The notes beneath the pieces were generated by a model that was given only the letters and a program-made list of their open reading frames with translations, was not told the origin of the DNA and ran no database searches. 64,000 nt of DNA, taken from assembly GCA_964639835.1 (NCBI GenBank), contig CAZXEG010000001.1, positions 1,223 through 65,222 on the forward strand, read 5' to 3'. The position numbers were made by a program, and so were the translations under genes. Origin of the DNA: an uncultured Candidatus Saccharibacteria bacterium (GTDB lineage: Bacteria > Patescibacteriota > Saccharimonadia > Saccharimonadales > Saccharimonadaceae). Positions 1 through 12,127 of this stretch are shown piece by piece; positions within the stretch are counted from its first letter, which is position 1, and each line of letters starts with the position of its first letter.

Positions 1-1
1 G

Positions 2-151
2 TTCTTTGAGGGACTTTCGGCCGATCCGGCGCTGAGTCGGGCGATTGCGATGGGTGAGCGGGAGATTTTGTCGAGATTGAAGCTGATTGCTGAAGATGGG
101 GAGGCGGTGCGTCAGAAATTGGCGAAAATAGCGAAAACGTCGGGCCAATAA
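2..151 (+). CDS. 3' end of an unidentified CDS (partial, runs off the left edge)
   Basis: Open frame FFEGLSADPALSRAIAMGERE...KTSGQ ending TAA at 149-151; not in the ORF track. Confidence 0.55.
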   Translation, partial: FFEGLSADPALSRAIAMGEREILSRLKLIAEDGEAVRQKLAKIAKTSGQ

Positions 152-174
152 AAAACAGCAGTGAGGATGCTGTT
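151..174 (-). terminator. Intrinsic terminator after tRNA-Leu (possibly bidirectional)
   Basis: aacagca/tgctgtt 7-bp stem flanked by an A-run that is a U-tract on the minus strand. Confidence 0.55.
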
Positions 175-176
175 AG

Positions 177-263
177 TGGTGCCCGAGACAGGGGTTGAAC
201 CTGCACGTCCGTGAAGACACTAGCACCTGAAGCTAGCGCGTCTGCCAATTCCGCCACTCGGGC
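177..263 (-). tRNA. tRNA-Leu(CAG)
   Basis: Minus strand GCCCGAGTGGCGGAATTGGCAGACGCGCTAGC-TTCAGGT-GCTAG, long variable arm, GGTTCAA T-loop, encoded ACCA end. Confidence 0.95.
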
Positions 264-281
264 ATAATTCAATTATACCAT

Positions 282-484
282 AAAAATCCCCCGGGCGCTA
301 GACCCGGGGGTAAGGGGGTGGAACGGAAATGCCGCCATGTGTGCATATTTGGCACACCTCATACAATATAAATGAAATATGCAGATGGCAGCGGGATAAT
401 AATTATTTTAAGTGGCCTTCTCAGCTAAAATTTTGGTTTTGTGGCGTTCTCGCCTCCTCAGATGGAAAAGAACTACCCCCATTA
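282..484 (-). ncRNA. Candidate ~200-nt structured noncoding transcript
   Basis: Minus-strand TTGCAT-17-TATAAT promoter (519-491), terminator at 288-310 with U-tract, internal stems 331-350/375-392, end pairing 313-321/473-480; no convincing ORF. Confidence 0.4.
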
Positions 485-490
485 ATATAT

Positions 491-532
491 ATTATATCAC
501 ACTTTGCGGAAAAATGCAAGGTTTAGTATAAT
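491..532. promoter_or_regulatory. Overlapping divergent sigma70-type promoters
   Basis: + TTGCGG(504)-17-TATAAT(527-532) for pgi; minus TTGCAT-17-TATAAT (519..491). Confidence 0.7.
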
Positions 533-555
533 GGGAATAATAAGCTGGAGGTTTT

Positions 556-1713
556 ATGATTACAGTAAATTGTGCGCCAGAGGTGGACGAGGCGAGGACG
601 CGGGAGATTCTAGAGGAGATTTTGAAGGACGAGATGGGGGGATTTTTGGAATTGCCGCGTCGAATTGATATGGCGGAGCTTTCGCGGGTGAAAGAGGCGG
701 CGGCGAAAATTCGGGATGAATCTGAGGTGGTGGTGTGTATTGGAATCGGCGGGTCGTATCTGGGGCATCGAGCGGTAATCGAAGCACTTTTGAACCCGGG
801 TGAAGTGCGGATGGTGTATGCGGGGAATTCGCTGAGCGCGAGAGAGCTGGAAAGGGCGGTAGAAGAAGTAGGGGAAGCGGATTTTTCGGTGATTGTGATA
901 TCAAAATCAGGGACGACGCTGGAGCCGGCGCGAGCGTTCCAAATGTTTCGGCGGAAATTGGTGGAGAAGTATGGCGAAGAGGGAGCGGCTCCTAGGATTT
1001 ATGCGGTGACGGATGCGAAGAGTGGGGCTTTCTTCGATGAGGCGGTGAGCAAGGGGTATGCTAGGTTTGTGGTGCCGGATAATGTGGGCGGGCGGTACTC
1101 GGTGCTTTCTTCGGTGGGGCTTTTGCCGATGGCGGTGATGGGGGTGGATATTGATGCGCTGCTCTCTGGGGCGGCGGAGGAAGCGGAGCGAGTGGCTCTA
1201 GCGATGCGGGACGGGGGAGCTTCTGAACTTGCGTGTGCGAAATATGCATGGATGCGACATGCGTTATTTATGCGGGGGTATGATACGGAGGTGTTTGCGA
1301 GTTTTGAGCCGGCGACGAGGTATTTCAATGAGTGGTTAAAGCAACTGTTTGGTGAGAGTGAGGGGAAGAATGGGCAGGGGGCGTGGCCGGCGAGCGTGAT
1401 TTATTCGACGGATTTACATTCTTTGGGACAGTTTATGCAGGAGGGGCGGCGGAATTTGTGGGAGACGATTATTAATTACCCGACGGATGAGCTGAATGCG
1501 AAAGTGGTGACTGCGGTTAGAATAGCGCATGCGGAGGGTGGGATACCAGTACTCTGTGTGGACGTGCCGACGTATGATGCAAAGGGGTTTGGGGAATTGA
1601 TTTATTTCTTTGAGGTGGCGTGTGCGGTCTCGGCGAAACTTGCGGGGGTGAATCCGTTTGATCAGCCGGGGGTGGAGCGGTATAAGGCGGAGCTCAAAAA
1701 ACTTATCGCTTGA
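556..1713 (+). CDS. pgi: Glucose-6-phosphate isomerase (short form)
   Basis: GIGGSYLG, SKSGTTLE, VGGRYSVLS, NPFDQPGVE motifs; GGAGG RBS. Confidence 0.95.
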   Translation: MITVNCAPEVDEARTREILEEILKDEMGGFLELPRRIDMAELSRVKEAAAKIRDESEVVVCIGIGGSYLGHRAVIEALLNPGEVRMVYAGNSLSARELERAVEEVGEADFSVIVISKSGTTLEPARAFQMFRRKLVEKYGEEGAAPRIYAVTDAKSGAFFDEAVSKGYARFVVPDNVGGRYSVLSSVGLLPMAVMGVDIDALLSGAAEEAERVALAMRDGGASELACAKYAWMRHALFMRGYDTEVFASFEPATRYFNEWLKQLFGESEGKNGQGAWPASVIYSTDLHSLGQFMQEGRRNLWETIINYPTDELNAKVVTAVRIAHAEGGIPVLCVDVPTYDAKGFGELIYFFEVACAVSAKLAGVNPFDQPGVERYKAELKKLIA

Positions 1714-2644
1714 CGATGGTGCCGGCTTTGCCGGCGAGAGCGAGTTCGAGGAAATCGATGTCGGTGATGATGCCGGTGCCGCCTTTTTTGGCGAAGGCGA
1801 TGGCGGCCTCGACTTTGGGAAGCATGGAGCCGGGCTTGAAGTAGCCACTTTTTTCGAGATGTGCGAGTTCGTGGGCGGTAATTTTGCCGATGGCGACTTG
1901 GTCTTTGGTGCCGTAATTGATGTAAACGTTCTTTACGGCGGTGACGGAAACGAAAATGTCGGCTTTTGTGAGCTCGGCGAGTTTCTCGGCGGCAAAATCC
2001 TTGTCAATGACGGCATCGACGCCTTTAAGACGTTTCAAAATTTTGGTGCGGTAGACGGGGATGCCACCACCGCCGGCGGTGATGACGATGACGCCACTTT
2101 CGACGAGCGCGGTGATGGTGCGCTTCTCGACTATATCGATAGGCCTAGGAGAAGGTACGACGCGACGCCAGCCGCGGCCGGCGTCTTCTTTGACTGTCCA
2201 GCCTTTGGTTTTTGCGAGCATTTTGGCGGTTTTTGCATCGTAAAATTCGCCGATGGGTTTTTCGGGGCGCTTGAAGGCAGGGTCGTTTTTGTCTACTACG
2301 ACTTGGGAAACGATGGTGGCGATCTTTTTGTGTTGACCGCGTTTCAAAAAAGCGTTGTTGATGGCCTGGGCGAGCCAGTAGCCGATTTGGCCTTGGCTCA
2401 TGGCGACGGCGGTTTCGAGGGGCATGGCGGGGGCTTTTTCGGTGGCGGCAGATTCTTCGTGGATGAGAATATTGCCGACTTGGGGGCCGTTGCCGTGGGC
2501 GATGATAATTTCGTATTTGCTAGATAAGTCCGCGATGACTTCGCCGACGGTTTGTGCGACTTGTTTTTGAGCCGTGGCAGTGACTTCGCCGTTTTTTTGC
2601 AAGGCGTTGCCACCGAGGGCTAGTACGATACGTTTCTTTGCCAT
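1703..2644 (-). CDS. arcC: Carbamate kinase
   Basis: ALGGNAL, HGNGPQVG, GRGWRRVVPSP, GGGGIPV, VIDKD, GSMLPKVEA; start moved to MAKKR, 7 nt after TATAAT. Confidence 0.95.
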   Translation of the reverse strand: MAKKRIVLALGGNALQKNGEVTATAQKQVAQTVGEVIADLSSKYEIIIAHGNGPQVGNILIHEESAATEKAPAMPLETAVAMSQGQIGYWLAQAINNAFLKRGQHKKIATIVSQVVVDKNDPAFKRPEKPIGEFYDAKTAKMLAKTKGWTVKEDAGRGWRRVVPSPRPIDIVEKRTITALVESGVIVITAGGGGIPVYRTKILKRLKGVDAVIDKDFAAEKLAELTKADIFVSVTAVKNVYINYGTKDQVAIGKITAHELAHLEKSGYFKPGSMLPKVEAAIAFAKKGGTGIITDIDFLELALAGKAGTIVKR

Positions 2645-2685
2645 AATTTTATTATAGCACAAAAGGCTTATGGTATAATGGGGTT

Positions 2686-3561
2686 ATGAAGCAGAAAAAA
2701 CGAACTAAGAAAAAGAAACTTGAATGGCCAAAATGGGTGGCGCTGATAAGCGGTTTTGTGATCGCGGTGGCGGTGATGGTGGGGGTGATTTTGGTGCAGG
2801 CACAGCCGGCAGATTACATTGTGGAGACGAATGCGTTTTTTGCGCCGTTTGAATTTTACGAGGGGAGAGAGATCAAGGGGGTGGATGTGGAAATCATTAA
2901 CCGGGTGGCGAAGCACATGGGGAAGAAGATTAAGATTGTCGACGTGGAGTTTGACGTGATTATCGATAACGTCGAGGCAGGGAAGATTGCGGACGCGGGG
3001 GCGGCGGGGTTGACGATCACGCCGGCAAGGGCGGAGAAAGTGAATTTTTCGATTCCGTATTATAATTCGGTGCAGTATGTAATATATAGTAAGACGGCGG
3101 AGCCAGAGTCGCGGAATGGGCATATTCTGTGGAATGCTTTGGCGGGAAAGACGCTGGGTTCGCAGACCGGAGGGACGGGATATTTGTTTGTTTCGGATGA
3201 AATTGATACGGGTGTCTTGAAGGATACGGGGGCGGTAACCAAGGGATTTGATTCGTATCAGCTGGCGGCGGATGCTATTTCTTCGCATTTGGTTGATTAT
3301 GCGATTGCGGATGAGTTGGCGGCAAAATTTATTGTGGCGAAAAATGATAATTTGGCGGCGATGCCACTTTACTATGCGGGTGAAACGCCAGCAGAAGATT
3401 ATGCGACGGAGGAAGCTTATGCTATCGCGGTGAACAAGGAGCGGGGCGAGCTTCTGGAAGCGTTTAACGTGGTTTTGGCGGAGATGTTGACAGAAGACGC
3501 AGAGGGGAAAACGGAGATTGACCGGCTGATCTTACAATACATGGGTTTTTCGGATGAATGA
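2686..3561 (+). CDS. Polar amino-acid ABC transporter substrate-binding protein
   Basis: FAPFEF, GVDVEI, AGLTITPARAEKVNFSIPYY (SBP family 3); N-terminal TM anchor. Confidence 0.9.
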   Translation: MKQKKRTKKKKLEWPKWVALISGFVIAVAVMVGVILVQAQPADYIVETNAFFAPFEFYEGREIKGVDVEIINRVAKHMGKKIKIVDVEFDVIIDNVEAGKIADAGAAGLTITPARAEKVNFSIPYYNSVQYVIYSKTAEPESRNGHILWNALAGKTLGSQTGGTGYLFVSDEIDTGVLKDTGAVTKGFDSYQLAADAISSHLVDYAIADELAAKFIVAKNDNLAAMPLYYAGETPAEDYATEEAYAIAVNKERGELLEAFNVVLAEMLTEDAEGKTEIDRLILQYMGFSDE

Positions 3562-4252
3562 TTTTTGGGGCAAGATAGTAGAGCTATTTAGTACGCCGGA
3601 ATATATTGATGCACTACTGCACGGGTTTTTGCTGACGCTTGAGATTGCGTTTTTGGCGATTTTGGTGGGGTTGGCGCTCGGGACGGTGATTGCGCTAGTC
3701 GAGACGGCGGAAAAGTCGAAGTGGCTGGCTTTGCCGAAGTTTGTTTGCCGGGTGTATACGACGGTGATTCGTGGCACGCCGATGGCGCTACAATTGTTTA
3801 TTATGTTTTTTATTATTTTTGCGATTCGGGGGTTTCCAGAAATTGTGACGGCGGTTTTGGCGTTTGGGTTTAATTCGGCGGCGTATACGTCGGAGGTGAT
3901 TCGGAGTGGGATACAGTCAGTGGATCCGGGGCAAAAAGAGGCGGGGCTGGCGCTGGGACTGAAGAATGTGACAGTGATGAGAAAAATTGTGATACCGCAA
4001 GCGATCAAGAATATCATTCCGGCGCTTGGCAATGAAATAATCACGGTTTTGAAGGAAACGGCGATTGTGAGTATGGTGGGGATGTATGACCTAAACATGG
4101 CAGCTAAGGATATCGGGTCGGGACAGAATATGGCGAGCTATGTGGTGCCGATGTTTACGGCGGCACTGTTTTACCTTGCGACGGTGTATTTGATCGCGTT
4201 TGCGGTTAAAATGATCGAGAAGCGGTTAAGAAGAAGCGAGGCGCGCGTATGA
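3554..4252 (+). CDS. Amino-acid ABC transporter permease
   Basis: [28 protein letters not shown] (EAA loop). Confidence 0.92.
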
Positions 4253-4986
4253 ATGAACCAAAAAACACGTTGCTGACAGTGGCGGCTTTAAAGAAATCTT
4301 TTGGTAAAAACGCGGTGCTTAGAGGCGTGAATTTTGAACTAAAAACGGGGGAACGAGTAGTGATTTTGGGGCCGAGTGGCTCGGGTAAGTCGACGTTTTT
4401 GAGATGCATAAATAGGTTGGAACAGCCAACGAGCGGAGCGGTGATTTTTGACGGAGTTTTGATAACGGATAAAAATGTGACGAAGATGCGACAACACATT
4501 GGGATGGTGTTTCAGCATTTTAATTTGATTAATAATTTGACCGTGATGGAGAATTTGACTTTGGCGCCAGTGAAATTGAAGTTAATGGATGAGGAAGCGG
4601 CGGAGCAAAAGGCGAAGCGGCTTTTGAAGCACATCGGACTTTTTGGCAAGCAAAAGGCGTATCCGGCGAGTTTGTCGGGCGGGCAAAAGCAAAGGATTGC
4701 GATTATACGGGCGATGATGATGGACCCGCAGATTTTGCTGTTTGATGAACCGACTTCGGCGCTTGACCCGGAATCGATTGGTGACGTACTGTCGCTCATA
4801 CGGGAGCTAGCGGAAAGAGGGATGACGATTGTGATCGTGACACACGAAATGAACTTTGCCAAAGAAATTGCGACGAGAGTGGTGTTTATGGACGAAGGGA
4901 AAATTGTGGAAGAAGGTACGCCGAGAGAATTTTTTGCGCATCCGAAAACCAAACGAGTGCAAGAATTTTTGAAAAAAGTTCTGTAG
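4249..4986 (+). CDS. Amino-acid ABC transporter ATP-binding protein (GlnQ-like)
   Basis: [35 protein letters not shown]. Confidence 0.95.
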
Positions 4987-5047
4987 GTGTTTTGGTGCCG
5001 AAAGAAGACGCTTGCGCTTAGAATGGACTTGGTATATAATGTTCAGT

Positions 5048-6064
5048 ATGGATGGGTATACACTAACACATAAAACACCAACAAGAAAAGATTTTATCGA
5101 TACGGCGGATTTTGATCAGTCGGAGATACTTGATATTATCAATACTGCGCGAATTGTGCGGGAGTATATTAAGGGGGGTGGCTATCTGAACTCGCTGTAC
5201 CATAAGACGCTAGCGATGGTATTTGAACAAAAGTCGACGAGGACGCGGGTGTCTTTTGAGGTGGCGATGGCGCAACTCGGAGGATATGCGCTGAACCTAG
5301 CACCAGGGGCGATACAGCTGGGTGGACATGAAACGATCGAGGACACGGCGCACGTTTTGGGGCGGATGTGTGATATGTTGATGTCGCGTGTGGATCGTCA
5401 CGAGTCAATTGAGGCCTTGGCAAAGTATTCGGCGGTGCCGGTGCTCAATGGGATGAGCGACCGAGTGCACCCGACGCAGGGGGTGGGGGATATGATTACG
5501 ATTTTTGATCATTGGCCGGCTGGGAAACAGGCTTCGCAGATCAAGGTGGTGTTCGTGGGGGATGCGACACAGGTTTGCAATACTTTGTGCGAAATGACGA
5601 CTAAGATGGGGATGAATTTTGTACACTATGGACCGGAAAATCACCGGATTAGTGATGAATGGTTGGGGATCGGAGCGGCGAATGTGGCGAAGTACGGTGG
5701 CTCATGCACGTGGAGCGATGACCCAGCGAGCCTTTTAGGAGCAGATTTTATCTATACGGATGTGTGGTATGGGCTTTATGACGCGGAGACGCCGAAGGAA
5801 GAGTACATGAAAGACTTTTACCCGAAATATCAAGTAAATGAAGAACTAATGATGGCGACCGGGAATCCAAATTGCAAATTTATGCATTGTTTGCCGGCGA
5901 ACCGGAATGAAGAAGTGACAGATGCAGTGCTAGACGGAGCAAATTCGGTGGCGTGGGATGAAGCGGAAAATCGTTTGACAGCGCAGCGAGGGCTGGTGCT
6001 CTATTTTGGCGGGGCAGCGCAGAGTACGCTCGATTACATTAAAGGCCAAAAGGAGGCAGTCTAG
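5048..6064 (+). CDS. aguB: Putrescine carbamoyltransferase
   Basis: STRTR, HPTQ and HCLP carbamoyltransferase motifs plus the PTCase-type YTDVWYGLYDAE...FYPKYQVN segment; adjacent to aguD/aguA; start at MDGY, 7 nt after TATAAT. Confidence 0.88.
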   Translation: MDGYTLTHKTPTRKDFIDTADFDQSEILDIINTARIVREYIKGGGYLNSLYHKTLAMVFEQKSTRTRVSFEVAMAQLGGYALNLAPGAIQLGGHETIEDTAHVLGRMCDMLMSRVDRHESIEALAKYSAVPVLNGMSDRVHPTQGVGDMITIFDHWPAGKQASQIKVVFVGDATQVCNTLCEMTTKMGMNFVHYGPENHRISDEWLGIGAANVAKYGGSCTWSDDPASLLGADFIYTDVWYGLYDAETPKEEYMKDFYPKYQVNEELMMATGNPNCKFMHCLPANRNEEVTDAVLDGANSVAWDEAENRLTAQRGLVLYFGGAAQSTLDYIKGQKEAV

Positions 6065-6126
6065 TTAGAAAGCTCAAAAGATATACGAAGATTGGCAAAA
6101 ATTAAAAGAAAGGAGAAAGTTAAAAA

Positions 6127-7620
6127 ATGCCAAAGAAAAAATATAAGTTCAGACTGCTTTCGGCGGTTTTTGCGACGGTCTGTATAATTTTGGTTGGGGA
6201 TGCAGTGGCGCCAACGGCGGCGATCGGCAACTCAATGTATATTTGGTGGGCAATTATGCTCATCGGTTTCTTCGTGCCATACGCGCTGATTTCGGCGGAG
6301 CTTGGTACGCAATATCCGTCTGAAGGCGGTATGTATACGTGGATTAAAAAAGCCTTTGGTAAAAAATGGGCAGCTAGGGTAGCGTGGTTTTATTGGGTGA
6401 ATTTCCCACTGTGGATTGCTTCGCTGGCTGATCTTATTACCACGATGATCATGCAGATGTTTGGCATCGAGATGGAAATGTGGATGGTACTGGCAATTCA
6501 GCTATTCTATATTGCGCTAGTGACGGTGCTCGGCATGCTGAGAATCTCGCAGTCCGACTGGGTATCGAACATTGGTGCGGTAATCAAGATGATACTGCTT
6601 GGCGCGATCGGCTTTTTGGGGCTCTATGTGCTATTCACGAAGGGGACAGCGAACCCGATTGAAGGTTGGCAGGATTTTGTACCACTAGCATCGGCGGACG
6701 GGGGGATTGATTGGGCCGGGCTTAGTTTTGTATCGCTGATCATCTTTAACATGCTTGGCTTTGAGGTGGTAGGTACGTTTTACGATGATATGGACAAGCC
6801 GAAATCGCAAATTCCAAAGGCAATTGTGCTCGGTGGGATTTTGATTGCGATTTTCTACATCTTCCCGTCATTTGGCATGGGCGTAGGTACGCCGTTTGAA
6901 GAGATCCAGACTAATACTGGTTTCCTCGATTCCTATAATGTATTAATGGCGAATGCCGGAATTGGCGAAGCCGCGATTCAAGCAATTACGATCGTGGTGG
7001 GAGGTCTATTCATCTTGACGCTAATTTCTAACATTTCCTCTTGGACGTTTGGTGTGTACTCGGTGACTGCGTACGCAGCGGAAGATGGAGCGTTCCCGAA
7101 GTCTTGGGCAAAGCGCAACAAAGACGGTGCGCCGTATGTAGTAAGTATTTGGACGGGCATTATCGCGGCGATTTTGTCTGCGGCGGGCGTGTTTATCGCT
7201 TATGCGTTGCCGGAGATGGGCGTGGATGAAGGATTCCTAGAAGGCTTTTCAAATATGTTCTGGGCATTCTTCTCGCTGTCCTTGGTATGTCTACTTCTTT
7301 CTTACATTCCGATGTTTGCGGCGTTTATTAAGCTTCACAAAGCTGGTCCGCAGGTTAAGAATGGCTACTGGGTCAAAATTGGGCCGGTGCTTAGGTGGCT
7401 GATGGGGGTGGTGCCACTGATACTTCTAGGCATAGCTTTGTTCTTTACGCTAGTGCCGGTTCCGGACGATCTTGCAACGACTTGGGAAGAAAATAACGTG
7501 TTGATTATTTCGACGGTTGTGTGTATCGTGATCGGTGAAATAATGGTACTAAACATGTCGCGAAAGGATCGCAAGAAAAAACTAGCAAGAAAAAGTTCAA
7601 GAAAGGCAATAAAGGCTTAA
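6127..7620 (+). CDS. aguD: Agmatine/putrescine antiporter (APC family)
   Basis: About 12 TM segments, SAELGTQYPSEGGMYTWIKKAFG, GFEVVG; position between aguB and aguA; AAAGGAG RBS. Confidence 0.82.
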   Translation: MPKKKYKFRLLSAVFATVCIILVGDAVAPTAAIGNSMYIWWAIMLIGFFVPYALISAELGTQYPSEGGMYTWIKKAFGKKWAARVAWFYWVNFPLWIASLADLITTMIMQMFGIEMEMWMVLAIQLFYIALVTVLGMLRISQSDWVSNIGAVIKMILLGAIGFLGLYVLFTKGTANPIEGWQDFVPLASADGGIDWAGLSFVSLIIFNMLGFEVVGTFYDDMDKPKSQIPKAIVLGGILIAIFYIFPSFGMGVGTPFEEIQTNTGFLDSYNVLMANAGIGEAAIQAITIVVGGLFILTLISNISSWTFGVYSVTAYAAEDGAFPKSWAKRNKDGAPYVVSIWTGIIAAILSAAGVFIAYALPEMGVDEGFLEGFSNMFWAFFSLSLVCLLLSYIPMFAAFIKLHKAGPQVKNGYWVKIGPVLRWLMGVVPLILLGIALFFTLVPVPDDLATTWEENNVLIISTVVCIVIGEIMVLNMSRKDRKKKLARKSSRKAIKA

Positions 7621-7630
7621 AATAAAAAGT

Positions 7631-7662
7631 CCTAAAAAGATTCCTGCGGGAGTCTTTTTAGG
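7631..7662 (+). other. Intercistronic hairpin between aguD and aguA
   Basis: cctaaaaagattcc/ggagtctttttagg 14-bp stem with one G-U. Confidence 0.55.
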
Positions 7663-7689
7663 CTTTAACGATAAAATAAAGGAGGTTTT

Positions 7690-8823
7690 ATGAAATTAAC
7701 TTCAACACCGAAACAAGATGGGTTCTACATGCCATCGGAGCTGGCGCCACATAAATGTACGTGGCTACTATGGCCAGAGCGACCAGATAACTGGCGCGGA
7801 GGGGCGAAACCGGCGCAGAAGGCGTTTCGGCAAGTAGTGGAAACAATTGCAAAATACGAACCGGTGGTACTGGGCGTGAACCAATCGCAGTATGCGCACG
7901 TTCTGGGTATGAATATGAAAAATGTGTCGGTAGTGGAAATATCGAATAATGATTCGTGGATACGGGATACTGGCGCGACGATGGTGGTGAATGATAAGGG
8001 TGAGATGCGAGCGGTAGATTGGGGTTTTAATGGCTACGGTGGACTAGTAGATGGTATTTATTTCCCGTGGGATCTAGATGATATGATTGCGGCAAAAATG
8101 GCGAACATTGAGGGTGTAGATAGATACCGAGCGGAGGATTTCGTGTTGGAAGGCGGTTCGATTCACTCGGATGGTGAGGGAACGCTACTCGTAACCGAAG
8201 AAACTTTGTTGTCGGAAGGGCGGAATCCAGGAATGACGCGCGAAGAAATTGAGGCGAAATTGATAGAATATACGGGATGTGAGAAAGTTTTGTGGTTGCC
8301 ATATGGCGTATATAAGGATGAAGATACAAACGGCCACGTGGATAATATTTGTCAATTTGTGGCGCCTGCGAAAGTGGTTTTGGCCTGGGAGGATGACGAA
8401 TCGGATCCGCAATATGAACGTTCGAAAGCGGACCTTGAGTATTTGGAATCAGTAACGGATGCGAAGGGGCGGAAGTTGGAAGTGCATAAAATTCACGTGC
8501 CGCGAGTGGTGACGATTACAAAAGAAGAGTCGGAGGGGGTGGATGTAGTGGAGGGGACGTTCCCGCGGAATGAAGGCGATAGACTGCCGGCGTCGTATGT
8601 GAATTATTATAATTGCAACGGGGCGATTATCTTGCCGATATTTAATGATCCGTATGATGCAGATGCGGTAAGGGTTTTGAAGGAATTGTTCCCGGATCGA
8701 GTGATCGAGCCGATTTATGCAAGGGAAATTCTATTGGGTGGGGGCAATATACATTGTATCACGCAACAGGTTCCAAATGGGACTTTCTTTGGGAAAGAAA
8801 GTCCCAACGAAAGAAACCAGTAA
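7690..8823 (+). CDS. aguA: Agmatine deiminase (peptidylarginine deiminase superfamily)
   Basis: WPERPDNWR, DSWIRD, LEGGSIHSDGEG, TNGHVD, GGGNIHCITQQ with catalytic Cys. Confidence 0.95.
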   Translation: MKLTSTPKQDGFYMPSELAPHKCTWLLWPERPDNWRGGAKPAQKAFRQVVETIAKYEPVVLGVNQSQYAHVLGMNMKNVSVVEISNNDSWIRDTGATMVVNDKGEMRAVDWGFNGYGGLVDGIYFPWDLDDMIAAKMANIEGVDRYRAEDFVLEGGSIHSDGEGTLLVTEETLLSEGRNPGMTREEIEAKLIEYTGCEKVLWLPYGVYKDEDTNGHVDNICQFVAPAKVVLAWEDDESDPQYERSKADLEYLESVTDAKGRKLEVHKIHVPRVVTITKEESEGVDVVEGTFPRNEGDRLPASYVNYYNCNGAIILPIFNDPYDADAVRVLKELFPDRVIEPIYAREILLGGGNIHCITQQVPNGTFFGKESPNERNQ

Positions 8824-8867
8824 GAAATTAAAGTCAGGCACATGTCCTGACTTTAATTTTGATTATA
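8778..8867 (+). repeat. Two-hairpin repeat family A, copy 1
   Basis: TGGGACTTTCTTT-ggg-AAAGAAAGTCCCA, linker ACGAAAGAAACCAGTAAG, AAATTAAAGTCAGG-cacatgt-CCTGACTTTAATTT, TGATTATA. Confidence 0.85.
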
Positions 8868-8868
8868 A

Positions 8869-8895
8869 CATCTTCTCGGCTTTGCCGAGAAGATG
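8869..8895. terminator. Hairpin between convergent aguA and gpmI
   Basis: catcttctcggc-ttt-gccgagaagatg 12-bp perfect stem. Confidence 0.6.
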
Positions 8896-8898
8896 GGG

Positions 8899-10485
8899 TT
8901 ATTTGAGTTTGATGAGAGAGGGTTGCCAGGAGGCGGGGTGGTCGTGGTAGCCGAGGAGAGTGGCGAGGGTGGAGGCGAGGTTGGCGAGGCCGGGGTGGGG
9001 CAGGTTGGCGAGGTCGTAGAAAACGCGGTTTTTGGTGTTGTCGTAGAAAATGCAGGGGACTTGGTTTACGGTGTGGGAAGTCTTTTCGTTGCCGTCGGCA
9101 TCGAGGAGCTCTTCGGCGTTGCCGTGGTCGGCGATGATGACTAGGAGGCCCTTTTTCTGGTCGATGGCTGTGGCGAGACGGGCGAGGGAAAGGTCGATGG
9201 CTTCCATGGCTAAAATGGTGGCGCCGATGTCGGCGGTGTGGCCGACCATGTCGCCGCCGGGGAAATTGAGACGGATGAATTTGTAATTGTCGAGGTTTTT
9301 AATAACGGCATCGGTGATTTCGGCGGTTTTCATCCAGGGGCGGGTTTCGAGGGGCTCGGTATCGGAAGTTATTTCGATGAATTCTTCGCCGGTGGATTTG
9401 TCGTAACTGTTGCCGTTCCAGTAATAGGTGACGTGGCCGAATTTGACGGTTTCGGACACGGCGAGCTGAGAAACGCCACGCATGCTAAGGAAGCGACTTA
9501 AGGTCTCGCGGACGGTGAGGGGCTGGACCAGACGATGCTCGGGGACGTGGGTGTTTGAATTATACTCGGTCATGCCGACGAAATAGACGTCGTCTGGGGT
9601 GTAATTGCCGCGGTCGAAATAAGGGAAGTCCCAGTAGGTAAAGGCTTGGGCGATTTCGATGGCACGGTCGGCGCGGAAGTCGAAGTAGATGAGGGCGTCG
9701 CCCTTTTTTACGAGGCCGATGGGGCGGTCCATGTCGTCAACGATGACGAAAGGCTCGAGGTTTTGGTCCTGGACGTCGGGAGCGATGCGATGGAGGATGT
9801 TTAGAGCCTCCTCGGGAGTACGGAAGTAGAAGTCGGCTTCGCCTCGTACCATCATGTCAAAACCGCGTCTTACGACATTCCAATCGTTTTCGTAGCGATC
9901 GGCGACGCAAACCATACGACCGCCGCCGGAGGCGATTTTGATGTCGGCATTGTCAAATTTGCGAGCGAAATTTTCGAAGCGTTGGATGTAGTTTTCGGCG
10001 CTGAAGGGGTCGACGTCGCGACCGTCAAAGATGGCGTGGACGCGAATGCGGGTGACGCCGTCGTTTACGGCTTTGGTAATCATCTGTTCGAGGTGAGCGA
10101 TATGGCTGTGAACGCCACCGTCGGAAAAAATACCAGCAAAATGCAAAGTACCGCCGTTTAAAGCTTTGGTAATGGCGGTACGCCAAGATTCGGAACCCCA
10201 GACTTCGTTTGAATCAAAGGCGGCGTTGATACGGGCGATGCCGTGCTTTAGGATCTGCCCGGAACCCATGGTGGTGTGGCCGACTTCGCTGTTGCCCATC
10301 TGGCCGGCAGTAAGGCCAACGGCTTCGCCGGAGGCATCGAGCGCAACGTGAAGATAATCTTTGGCAGCTTTCCCAAGAAAGGGCGTGCGTGCCCGGCTGA
10401 CTGCGTTACCTGGCCCATCTGGCGCTAGGCCCACCCCATCTAATATTGCGAGCACCACAGGCCCATCAAACTGTAGTCTATCCAT
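8899..10485 (-). CDS. gpmI: 2,3-bisphosphoglycerate-independent phosphoglycerate mutase
   Basis: AILDGVG, GQMGNSEVGH, SDGGVHSH, DFRADRA, DMVGHT, ADHGNAE; start at MDRLQF, 6 nt after TATAAT. Confidence 0.95.
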   Translation of the reverse strand: MDRLQFDGPVVLAILDGVGLAPDGPGNAVSRARTPFLGKAAKDYLHVALDASGEAVGLTAGQMGNSEVGHTTMGSGQILKHGIARINAAFDSNEVWGSESWRTAITKALNGGTLHFAGIFSDGGVHSHIAHLEQMITKAVNDGVTRIRVHAIFDGRDVDPFSAENYIQRFENFARKFDNADIKIASGGGRMVCVADRYENDWNVVRRGFDMMVRGEADFYFRTPEEALNILHRIAPDVQDQNLEPFVIVDDMDRPIGLVKKGDALIYFDFRADRAIEIAQAFTYWDFPYFDRGNYTPDDVYFVGMTEYNSNTHVPEHRLVQPLTVRETLSRFLSMRGVSQLAVSETVKFGHVTYYWNGNSYDKSTGEEFIEITSDTEPLETRPWMKTAEITDAVIKNLDNYKFIRLNFPGGDMVGHTADIGATILAMEAIDLSLARLATAIDQKKGLLVIIADHGNAEELLDADGNEKTSHTVNQVPCIFYDNTKNRVFYDLANLPHPGLANLASTLATLLGYHDHPASWQPSLIKLK

Positions 10486-10507
10486 GTTGTGATTATAGCA
10501 CAAGGAA

Positions 10508-10540
10508 TCAAAATAGTCCACCCGTGGTGGACTATTTTGA
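10508..10540 (-). terminator. Terminator of the 10550-10756 gene
   Basis: tcaaaatagtccac/gtggactattttga 14-bp perfect stem. Confidence 0.65.
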
Positions 10541-10549
10541 CCTTAAAAC

Positions 10550-10756
10550 TTAGGCTTTCTTCTTGAGGGTCAAGAAACCGTTGCGAGGATTCTCGCAGAC
10601 CATGCGGTCAGCTGGAAGGTCACATGGAGTGCCTTTGCCGCCGTTGGCGTCTTTGGTGAAGAAATAGATAGTTTGTTTTTTGCCACCACGCAAAGTCACT
10701 TCAGACTTGTGAAGATAGTATTTGATCCCTTTACCGTTGGTGTGTTCGTAAGCCAT
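10550..10756 (-). CDS. Small basic hypothetical protein (68 aa)
   Basis: AAGGAGG RBS, TTGACA-17-TAAGAT promoter (10817-10789) and own terminator. Confidence 0.8.
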   Translation of the reverse strand: MAYEHTNGKGIKYYLHKSEVTLRGGKKQTIYFFTKDANGGKGTPCDLPADRMVCENPRNGFLTLKKKA

Positions 10757-10853
10757 TTTAGACTTCCTCCTTAAGTTAGTATATTTTTATCTTATGATTC
10801 TGGAGGAAAAATGTCAAGGGGTTTTTCGCTATTTTTTGAAAAAAGTGGAGATT

Positions 10854-11576
10854 TTAGACAAATAACAGGGAAACCCTAAGCACGATAAAAATGACAAAAC
10901 GAATGATAATTACAACGATGACAAGCAAAGTTAGAAGTAACATAAAGCCGGTGAGGGTGGGGGCCCAGATGGGCGAAGCATAGTTGTGGCGATAAAGTTC
11001 AGTGGAAGGTAACTTGGCGATGATGGTATCTTGGATTTCGGCGGCGGAAGGATATTTATTAATCTCGGTCATCATGCAGTTGATAAAGTTAACGTCGTCC
11101 CAGGTCCAGCCGTTTGCGAGAGCGGCGGCTTTGCAGGTGGCGCCGGCTTCACCGTAGATATTGCCGTTGGGATTGTTGTCGGAAGTGAGGGATTTTTCGG
11201 CTTCGTCTAGGGCCTGGCGAGCGGCGCGGAGGTATTGATGCTCAAGGTAGAACGGGCCGGTGCCGAAAGTAACTTTTTGGATGCCGTTGTCGTCGACGAC
11301 GTTGATGACGATGTTTGAAAAGACGAATTCTTTTAGTGCGATGAGGGCGGTTTTTAGCTCGTCGTCGATTTGCTCTGTTTCTTCTAGCGTAGCGTTTTCG
11401 CTGATTTTGGCGTCGATGGCGAGGACTTGGTCGCGAAGCTTGGTCATTTTGATGTGATCTTGACGCATGAGCGAAGCATCAATAAAACCGAGCGGAATCA
11501 AAAGTAAAATTAACACCCAAGTTTTGATGCGGGCGTGGCGTAATTTCCGAAGTAGTTGTTTGATCTTGCCACCCAT
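10854..11576 (-). CDS. Hypothetical membrane protein with N- and C-terminal TM segments
   Basis: Start moved to MGGKIK because the longer ORF overlaps tRNA-Ile; two hydrophobic stretches. Confidence 0.75.
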   Translation of the reverse strand: MGGKIKQLLRKLRHARIKTWVLILLLIPLGFIDASLMRQDHIKMTKLRDQVLAIDAKISENATLEETEQIDDELKTALIALKEFVFSNIVINVVDDNGIQKVTFGTGPFYLEHQYLRAARQALDEAEKSLTSDNNPNGNIYGEAGATCKAAALANGWTWDDVNFINCMMTEINKYPSAAEIQDTIIAKLPSTELYRHNYASPIWAPTLTGFMLLLTLLVIVVIIIRFVIFIVLRVSLLFV

Positions 11577-11586
11577 AATAATTTCG

Positions 11587-11663
11587 TGGTAGGGATGCCT
11601 GGACTCGAACCAGGGACACTGCGTGTATAAGACGCATGCTCTAACCAACTGAGCTACATCCCC
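11587..11663 (-). tRNA. tRNA-Ile(UAU)
   Basis: Minus strand anticodon arm TGCGT-CTTATAC-ACGCA gives U34 A35 U36; AGCTCAGTTGGTTAGAGC D-arm, GGTTCGAGTCC T-arm, A73, CCA. Confidence 0.9.
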
Positions 11664-11704
11664 ACTTATATATATGATAACACAAAAAATGGTATAATAG
11701 AAAC

Positions 11705-12127
11705 ATGAGCGGGTTAAAATGGCGACAGGCGAAGTATAAATTGACGCACGACTATCTTTCGATCGAGAACGTGGCGCTTTTGGTGGCGGTGGTACTATGC
11801 CTAGTGTGGACGTATAACTCAATTACGTCGATGAGTAAAAACTGGGAGCTTTCGGAAAGGTTGAACGCCGAAAAGAAGAATTTGGAACTTTTGAAAATGG
11901 AAGTGGAGACGGCGGAGCTGACGAATGAATACTATAAAAGTGAGGAATACCAGGAGCTTGCGGCGCGAAAATTGGCAAATAAACAACTTCCGGATGAACA
12001 TATGGTGTACTTGCCGGAAAATTCGGAAACAGCCAAGAACAAACATAAGCAGGAAGAAGTGACGCTTTCAGAAGAGAAAAAAGATTACTCGAATTTTGAA
12101 AAGTGGATGATGTTTTTATTCCCGTGA
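11705..12127 (+). CDS. FtsB/FtsL/DivIC-like septum formation protein
   Basis: Short N-terminus, one TM, coiled coil, EYQELAARKL...LPDEHMVYLP resembling DivIC. Confidence 0.6.
   Translation: MSGLKWRQAKYKLTHDYLSIENVALLVAVVLCLVWTYNSITSMSKNWELSERLNAEKKNLELLKMEVETAELTNEYYKSEEYQELAARKLANKQLPDEHMVYLPENSETAKNKHKQEEVTLSEEKKDYSNFEKWMMFLFP

Follow-up and report, generated by a model that had tools for sequence, protein, structure and literature searches.

The DNA stretch analyzed here, a 64,000-nucleotide window on a contig from an uncultured Saccharibacterium, probably encodes a functional pathway of the agmatine deiminase (AgDI) type, in which an aguB-aguD-aguA block derived from gut Firmicutes stands beside a resident carbamate kinase gene. 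The source genome is a metagenome-assembled genome (MAG) of Candidatus Nanosyncoccus (Saccharibacteria G3, animal gut). Its assembly comprises 744,981 bases in 53 contigs and is 94% complete, and the contig that contains the window is 74 kb long. An earlier interpretation based on the window alone (the sequence-only reading) had proposed a complete ATP-generating AgDI pathway in a probable genome from the candidate phyla radiation (CPR). The first part of this proposal is borne out at the level of homology by profiles, structures, motifs and trees. The CPR assignment also holds, because all of the 80 closest AguA-encoding loci belong to MAGs of Saccharibacteria or Candidatus Nanosyncoccus, including Ca. 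Nanosyncoccus alces from moose rumen, and the assembly has a size of only 745 kb. Most of these 80 loci come from the gut of sheep, goat, buffalo, yak, deer and mouse.

The AgDI pathway itself is textbook biochemistry; it is the lineage that is new for it. AguD would bring agmatine into the cell and carry putrescine out. AguA would hydrolyze agmatine to N-carbamoylputrescine and ammonia, and AguB, a putrescine carbamoyltransferase (PTC), would cleave N-carbamoylputrescine by phosphorolysis into putrescine and carbamoyl phosphate. The single carbamate kinase would then use carbamoyl phosphate and ADP to form ATP, CO2 and ammonia. The net gain per agmatine would be one ATP and two ammonia molecules, providing a cell of minimal metabolism with both energy and acid relief. 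Judged by homology, the pathway appears complete and the arginine deiminase system appears to be absent. The enzyme activities, transport specificity, expression, physiological role and direction of gene transfer discussed below are all deduced from sequence comparisons.

Genes were called from six-frame open reading frames (ORFs) combined with profile searches against Pfam and NCBIfam. The agmatine deiminase gene aguA (positions 7690-8823, plus strand) scores 543 bits against TIGR03380, the cut-off of which is 381.8, and 552 bits against NF010070. Its product aligns end to end with the agmatine deiminases of Streptococcus mutans (412 bits) and Enterococcus faecalis (408 bits), the best matches among solved structures, and it retains the catalytic motifs GHVDN and, near the C terminus, GGGNIHCITQQ, as aligned with the S. 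mutans structure 2EWO. The aguD gene (6127-7620, plus strand) encodes an APC-family permease of the Pfam family AA_permease_2. The best named homologs of AguD are the permeases encoded between ptcA and aguA in Listeria monocytogenes, E. faecalis, E. raffinosus and a plasmid of Loigolactobacillus backii, with identities of 38-42% over about 95% of the length. The equivalent protein of gut Firmicutes MAGs is 48-49% identical, so that the ptcA-aguA-flanked permeases of Listeria, Enterococcus, Loigolactobacillus and the gut Bacilli MAGs together span 38-49% identity over 93-95% of the length. AguD is apparently the counterpart, in sequence and in position, of the permease of the known operons, and may exchange agmatine for putrescine. 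The carbamate kinase gene (arcC/aguC, 1703-2644, minus strand), for the ATP-forming step, adjoins the agu cluster and is present in the genome as a single copy; it scores 383.6 bits against TIGR00746 (cut-off 358.25).

The gene for the remaining enzyme, aguB or ptcA (5048-6064, plus strand), encodes the sole carbamoyltransferase of the genome, also in a single copy. From its sequence, this carbamoyltransferase is of the PTC type and distinct from ornithine carbamoyltransferase (OTC). It scores 454.1 bits against the PTC model TIGR04384 compared to 305.7 bits against the OTC model, and its best matches among solved structures are the E. faecalis PTCs at 384 bits, the best OTC reaching 243 bits. 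The loop DVWYGLY, which replaces the ornithine-binding SMG loop of OTC, is invariant in 11 Saccharibacterial AguB proteins (that of the window and 10 orthologs), whereas Saccharibacterial OTCs (ArcB) have DVWLS(M/L)G at this position. The STRTR, HPTQ and HCLP motifs are kept in all 11. In a tree rooted with the ArcB proteins of Nanosyncoccus itself, all Saccharibacterial AguB proteins join the named ptcA products of Enterococcus, Listeria and Loigolactobacillus with a support of 100/100, apart from the OTCs of the genus. As for the ArcB proteins, in two genomes with the arginine system alone (L102, 9187-10188, and L105, 6953-7954) the canonical HCLP motif reads HALP or HPLP, so that the conserved cysteine is replaced; the ArcB of L100 has HCLP.

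The sequence-only reading had noted that neither the regulator gene aguR nor an arginine decarboxylase lies in the window, and this is correct. A search of the whole 94%-complete genome found neither arcA nor an arginine decarboxylase of the PF02784, PF01276 or PF01862 type, and no second carbamoyltransferase or second carbamate kinase is present in the genome. Because the genome lacks an arginine decarboxylase, agmatine must come from outside the cell.

The sequence-only reading also regarded the pathway as horizontally acquired. This idea stands for aguB, aguD and aguA, with which the distribution and the AguA and AguD trees agree, but does not extend to the kinase, which is resident, or to the neighboring ABC transporter, which lies outside the module. 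Saccharibacterial AguA proteins form one clade (100/100), nested in a larger clade (100/98) of which two Firmicutes-type lineages are also members. The first of these, named 'Bacilli bacterium' in nr, has the arrangement potABCD-aguB-aguD-aguA-carbamate kinase between spoVT/ksgA and yabG-veg-spoVG-yabP-divIC-tilS-ftsH; the second has aguD-aguA-carbamate kinase. The AguD tree reproduces the sister relationship to gut Bacilli with a support of 100/99. GCA_016648615.1 is one example of the donor-like MAGs. Thus, of the two phylogenies that had been proposed as a way to find the donor, that of AguA places gut Bacilli as the sister group and that of AguB resolves no donor.

Grouping of AguA at 50% identity merged the Saccharibacterial clade into Firmicutes-type representatives. 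Among hits with an AguA identity of at least 67%, P0269/P0291 and P0259 were assigned by gene context to Firmicutes-type operons and P0271 and P0303 to Saccharibacteria. The named operons in the AguB and AguD trees were taken from a plasmid collection. Five representatives (P0001, P0002, P0003, P0006 and P0013) were rejected as sources for these two trees; they are short contigs or biosynthetic contexts, and are useless for this purpose because they lack a PTC or permease.

The kinase has a different history. The kinases of Nanosyncoccus form one clade, in which genomes possessing the arginine system alone are also represented; this clade is split with a support of 99/95 from the kinase of the Bacilli MAGs (43-44% identity), and a common origin of the latter with the window kinase was rejected on these grounds. 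Together with further Saccharibacterial kinases (48-53% identity), the Nanosyncoccus clade falls into a group that the tree does not resolve. The window kinase is an ortholog, at 75-81% identity, of the kinase found in arginine-system-only Nanosyncoccus genomes. The carbamate kinase is, on this phylogeny, a resident enzyme that was not acquired together with aguBDA and that serves the arginine system in relatives.

The agu genes match the host contig in GC content and in its extreme GC skew, and the divergence of AguA parallels that of the flanking pgi and gpmI products. The most likely history is that aguBDA was acquired once, long ago and with no kinase, and was then passed on vertically and lost repeatedly. 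The aguB-aguD-aguA block would have come from a gut Firmicutes lineage bearing aguBDAC operons, would have entered early in the genus, next to the resident kinase in the interval between pgi and gpmI, and would have been inherited vertically thereafter with many losses. In the 64-kb window the skew is +0.31; in the genome as a whole (contigs C1-C20) its absolute value is about 0.24, and its sign stays constant along each contig. It is common to genes of either strand, the minus-strand genes arcC and gpmI having values of +0.21 and +0.22, respectively. Such a skew suggests a mutational bias linked to replication, one of unusual strength for a bacterium.

The distribution of the pathway was surveyed in samples of MAGs of varied completeness. 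Among 401 genomes representing 319 genera of Patescibacteria, the AguA cut-off was passed by Nanosyncoccus alone. Within this genus aguA is present in 122 of 301 species and in 90 of 200 high-quality genomes, compared to none of 397 genomes of the order outside it. The comparison of agu and arc clusters suggested by the sequence-only reading shows that both systems vary within Nanosyncoccus and that aguA is absent elsewhere in the sampled order. Both genes were scored in 37 genomes of the genus; aguA alone is present in 16, arcA alone in nine, both in three and neither in nine. Ten other Patescibacteria possess a distant AguA-like gene, the product of which is 32-37% identical and falls below the AguA cut-off. 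It adjoins genes for a CN_hydrolase and a deoxyhypusine synthase-like protein, and is accompanied by no PTC, kinase or permease.

Several observations weigh against a working pathway of Firmicutes origin. The AguB score of 454.1 bits is below the TIGR04384 cut-off of 500; the match covers model positions 1-311 of 330, and the shortfall arises because the last 19 or so C-terminal positions are unmatched. The C terminus of AguB is about 12-19 residues shorter than in the PTCs of Enterococcus and Listeria: 55 residues follow the HCLP motif in the window protein and in those of the gut Bacilli MAGs, compared to 67-71 in Enterococcus, Listeria and Loigolactobacillus. The E. faecalis enzyme has an extra C-terminal helix, for which AguB of the window is too short. 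AguD exceeds the cut-off of no curated antiporter model in the NCBIfam search. No regulator (aguR, RpiR type) was found among the called genes of window positions 1-12000, although a regulator is not strictly defining for AgDI systems because its presence varies among the known ones. The AguB tree leaves the donor unresolved, and the direction of transfer follows from the distribution, not from a rooted reconciliation.

An alternative proposal is that AguB is a catabolic OTC and the cluster a remnant of an arginine deiminase system, which would use imported citrulline, perhaps taken up by the neighboring ABC transporter. The failure to reach the PTC cut-off would fit this proposal, as would the fact that AguB surpasses the OTC equivalog cut-off of 280.85 bits, which is why all seven named AguB orthologs are called 'ornithine carbamoyltransferase' by NCBI, while aguA is correctly named in public records. 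Furthermore, the PTC of E. faecalis is weakly active on ornithine. However, the PTC model outscores the OTC model by 148 bits, the PTC structures are far better matches than any OTC structure, YGLY stands in place of the ornithine-binding loop, the linkage of aguB to aguD and aguA is constant, and AguB falls within the fully supported PTC clade, far from the ArcB of its own genus. An OTC identity is therefore very improbable. Somewhat less improbable, but still unlikely, is that the enzymes are present mainly for supplying putrescine to a cell unable to make it, or for buffering pH, with ATP as a by-product. Neither an arginine nor an ornithine decarboxylase was found in the genome, and other Patescibacteria pair their AguA-like enzyme with an N-carbamoylputrescine amidase for polyamine synthesis. 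The window cluster, however, does not use this amidase route. A phosphorolytic PTC and kinase together with an exchange-type permease constitute the energy-yielding layout of Enterococcus and Listeria, and both the chromosomal slot and the kinase are common to the ATP-yielding arginine deiminase system.

The nearest relatives outside Saccharibacteria are gut Firmicutes, and this raises the question whether an error of assembly or binning has put a piece of Firmicutes DNA into a Saccharibacterial MAG. Such an artefact is extremely improbable, because the cluster is embedded in a 74-kb contig between orthologs of pgi and gpmI, the same arrangement recurs in 80 MAGs from many independent studies, its genes have the unusual GC skew of the contig, and identity to the Firmicutes genes is just 48-67%. 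An AgDI pathway that was acquired from Firmicutes and yields ATP remains the probable explanation of the cluster.

The sequence-only reading described aguB, aguD and aguA in tandem, a divergent carbamate kinase gene upstream and an ABC transporter between them, and this order and these orientations have all been confirmed. The cluster is bounded on the left by pgi (glucose-6-phosphate isomerase, 556-1713, plus strand, 448.7 bits against NF010697) and on the right by gpmI (2,3-bisphosphoglycerate-independent phosphoglycerate mutase, 8899-10521, minus strand, 377.9 bits against TIGR01307), the two conserved flanks of what is a variable slot. The window proteins and the arcB, arcA and arcD products of the relative G011 were mapped onto about 100 loci, which showed that the pgi-gpmI interval has five states within Nanosyncoccus. 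It is empty, with pgi and gpmI 5-128 nucleotides apart, in G003, G022, G028 and G032. It contains the arginine system only, in the order pgi-arcC-arcB-arcA-arcD-gpmI, in G002 and G007, and the agmatine system only, as pgi-arcC-aguB-aguD-aguA-gpmI, in most loci, including that of N. alces. Both systems are present as arcC-arcBAD-aguBDA in L100, L022, L030, L038 and L040, and as arcC-aguBDA-arcBAD in L101, L031, L045 and L047. Loci with two systems always have one carbamate kinase. The agu block is conserved in all 80 related loci, which come from independent studies. In a deeper clade, from mouse gut and other sources, aguB-aguD-aguA-gpmI is separate from pgi-arcC, the kinase still being present in those genomes.

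It is possible, albeit rather doubtful, that the slot acts as a socket into which ATP modules based on carbamoyl phosphate are plugged. The arcBAD and aguBDA modules would be gained, stacked in either order and lost around a fixed kinase, with lineages switching their energy substrate by habitat and gut episymbionts living on agmatine released by acid-stressed neighbors or host bacteria. If so, the episymbionts of the gut would be consumers in a cross-feeding chain that starts with arginine decarboxylase.

Close relatives differ in the orientation of individual genes and cassettes within and near the slot. The arcC gene occurs in both orientations (the window was compared with L016, L018, L021, L025 and L047), and gpmI of the window together with the next ORF (8899-11822) is inverted relative to most relatives. 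This ORF (10854-11822), of 322 residues, has no Pfam or NCBIfam match, but counterparts with 59-67% identity lie beside gpmI in several relatives as well. A tRNA-Ile gene with the anticodon UAU was detected by ARAGORN on the minus strand at 11587-11663, and Rfam confirmed that it is a tRNA. Locus L103 (G018:C3:13000-30000) has a different arginine deiminase cluster, in the order arcA-arcB-arcD-arcC. Its ArcA shares only 46% identity with the remaining ArcA proteins of Nanosyncoccus, and yet it alone exceeds the arcA cut-off, with 554.8 bits. Two explanations are offered for this cluster, an independent second gain and contamination, the assembly having a completeness of 80% and a contamination of 3%.

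The polar amino-acid ABC transporter cassette (2686-4986, plus strand; Pfam families SBP_bac_3, BPD_transp_1 and ABC_tran) consists of genes for a substrate-binding protein (2686-3561), a permease (3554-4252) and an ATPase (4249-4986). Its position between arcC and aguB is limited to the window, L025 and L047, and its orientation is opposite in the latter two. Of 101 Nanosyncoccus genomes, 40 encode the binding protein, for the most part at other, unrelated loci; the best NCBIfam model for this protein is of the lysine/arginine/ornithine type, which it matches below the cut-off. The transporter is thus a native wandering cassette that has lodged in the slot, and does not belong to the agmatine module. 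Homologs of the binding-protein gene in four genomes (G452:C13, G486:C46, G021:C3 and G012:C10) have one in-frame stop (TAG or TGA) each; they may be pseudogenes or reflect the choice of start.

As to the start signals, the sequence-only reading contrasted Shine-Dalgarno (SD) sites of aguD and aguA with a leaderless start of aguB, and inspection of the sequence supports this. AAGGAG lies 11 nucleotides 5' of the ATG of aguD and AGGAGG lies 4 nucleotides 5' of that of aguA. The aguB gene has no SD sequence; it has a TATAAT 7 nucleotides 5' of its ATG at 5048, within the promoter-like element TGGTATATAAT (5030-5047, plus strand), which was missed by a two-hexamer promoter scan. The 41-nucleotide divergent control region (2645-2685) has back-to-back TGnTATAAT boxes, each 6 nucleotides from the ATG of arcC or of the binding-protein gene, and both of these starts are also of the leaderless type. 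The start of aguB is ATG 5048 rather than TTG 5012, giving a protein of 338 residues, the length of most orthologs, and that of arcC is ATG 2644 rather than TTG 2662. In ORFs of at least 200 residues throughout the genome, a TATAAT-like box is found 5-9 nucleotides upstream of 25.4% of first in-frame ATGs compared to 1.8% of interior ATGs, and SD-like motifs are found upstream of 30.8% and 3.6%, respectively. Leaderless-type starts look common across the Nanosyncoccus genome. The contrast between SD and leaderless starts was rejected as a sign of foreign origin, on which it is uninformative because the genome natively uses both; it reflects the position of a gene in the operon.

A hairpin with 13 base pairs lies between aguD and aguA (7631-7662, plus strand). 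The T tract after its stem is weak, and it is possibly a processing or attenuation element. Two terminator-like hairpins fill the space between the convergent aguA and gpmI genes (8830-8895). One (8830-8854) has a 9-bp stem followed by AATTTTG; in the other (8869-8895) the stem is of 12 bp, with a T-rich tail after it.

The arginine deiminase system has been described as a key acquisition that let Saccharibacteria colonize mammals; most G3 genomes have it, and arginine raises the ATP, viability or infectivity of host-free TM7x cells (PMC8764695). The agmatine cluster would be a second, parallel acquired route to ATP, present in about 40% of the sampled species of a gut and rumen genus, and in the window genome it is the only carbamoyl-phosphate-based one found. 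It is predicted that agmatine should sustain the viability or infectivity of host-free cells, which makes it a candidate supplement for cultivating gut Saccharibacteria. The pathway has been hidden in public annotation because the PTC is mislabeled as OTC, and Nanosyncoccus genomes will be misread in surveys where OTC and carbamate kinase are taken as genes of the arginine system. No report of an agmatine pathway in Saccharibacteria, Patescibacteria or Nanosyncoccus was found in the literature, the search covering papers outside subscription-only access.

The closest well studied counterpart is the E. faecalis operon aguR / aguB(ptcA)-aguD-aguA-aguC, for which the structures 2JER, 3TXX and 4A8H are available. 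It has the same aguB-aguD-aguA order, the same four predicted functions and the same catalytic and signature motifs, with identities to the window proteins of 50% for AguA, 56% for AguB, 40% for AguD and 47% for carbamate kinase. Unlike the E. faecalis operon, the window cluster lacks aguR, the C terminus of its AguB ends about 12 residues earlier, and an ABC transporter is interposed. Furthermore, its kinase gene is of different ancestry and lies upstream and divergent rather than downstream of aguA, and the cluster belongs to an ultrasmall episymbiont, the genome of which has 0.75 Mb. The aguB-aguD-aguA-carbamate kinase operons of gut 'Bacilli bacterium' MAGs (L120 and L121; also L133) encode the proteins most closely related to AguA (66-70% identity) and AguD (48-49%), and resemble the window in gene order and in the short C terminus of AguB. 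They differ from it in that the kinase gene follows aguA and encodes a protein only 43-44% identical to the window kinase, in the potABCD-type ABC transporter upstream, and in the neighborhood of sporulation genes.

The AguA-like enzyme of other Patescibacteria (L140-L142) is likewise a PAD_porph-family agmatine deiminase-like protein that would catalyze the first step, but it is 32-37% identical to that of the window, below the cut-off, and is paired with the CN_hydrolase and deoxyhypusine synthase-like genes. This trio is conserved in several non-Saccharibacterial CPR families. It suggests a pathway from agmatine to putrescine and on to a longer polyamine, a biosynthetic route with no gain of ATP because PTC, kinase and antiporter are missing. 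The arginine deiminase system of mammal-associated Saccharibacteria (arcA-arcB-arcC-arcD), as in TM7x (PMC8764695), follows the same logic as the agmatine system, producing ATP and ammonia by means of a deiminase, a carbamoyltransferase and a kinase together with an antiporter. Within Nanosyncoccus it occupies the same pgi-gpmI slot and employs the same kinase. However, its substrate is arginine rather than agmatine, it is absent from the window genome, and its deiminase (Amidinotransf), transporter (YfcC-like) and carbamoyltransferase (OTC) belong to families or subfamilies different from those of the agmatine system.

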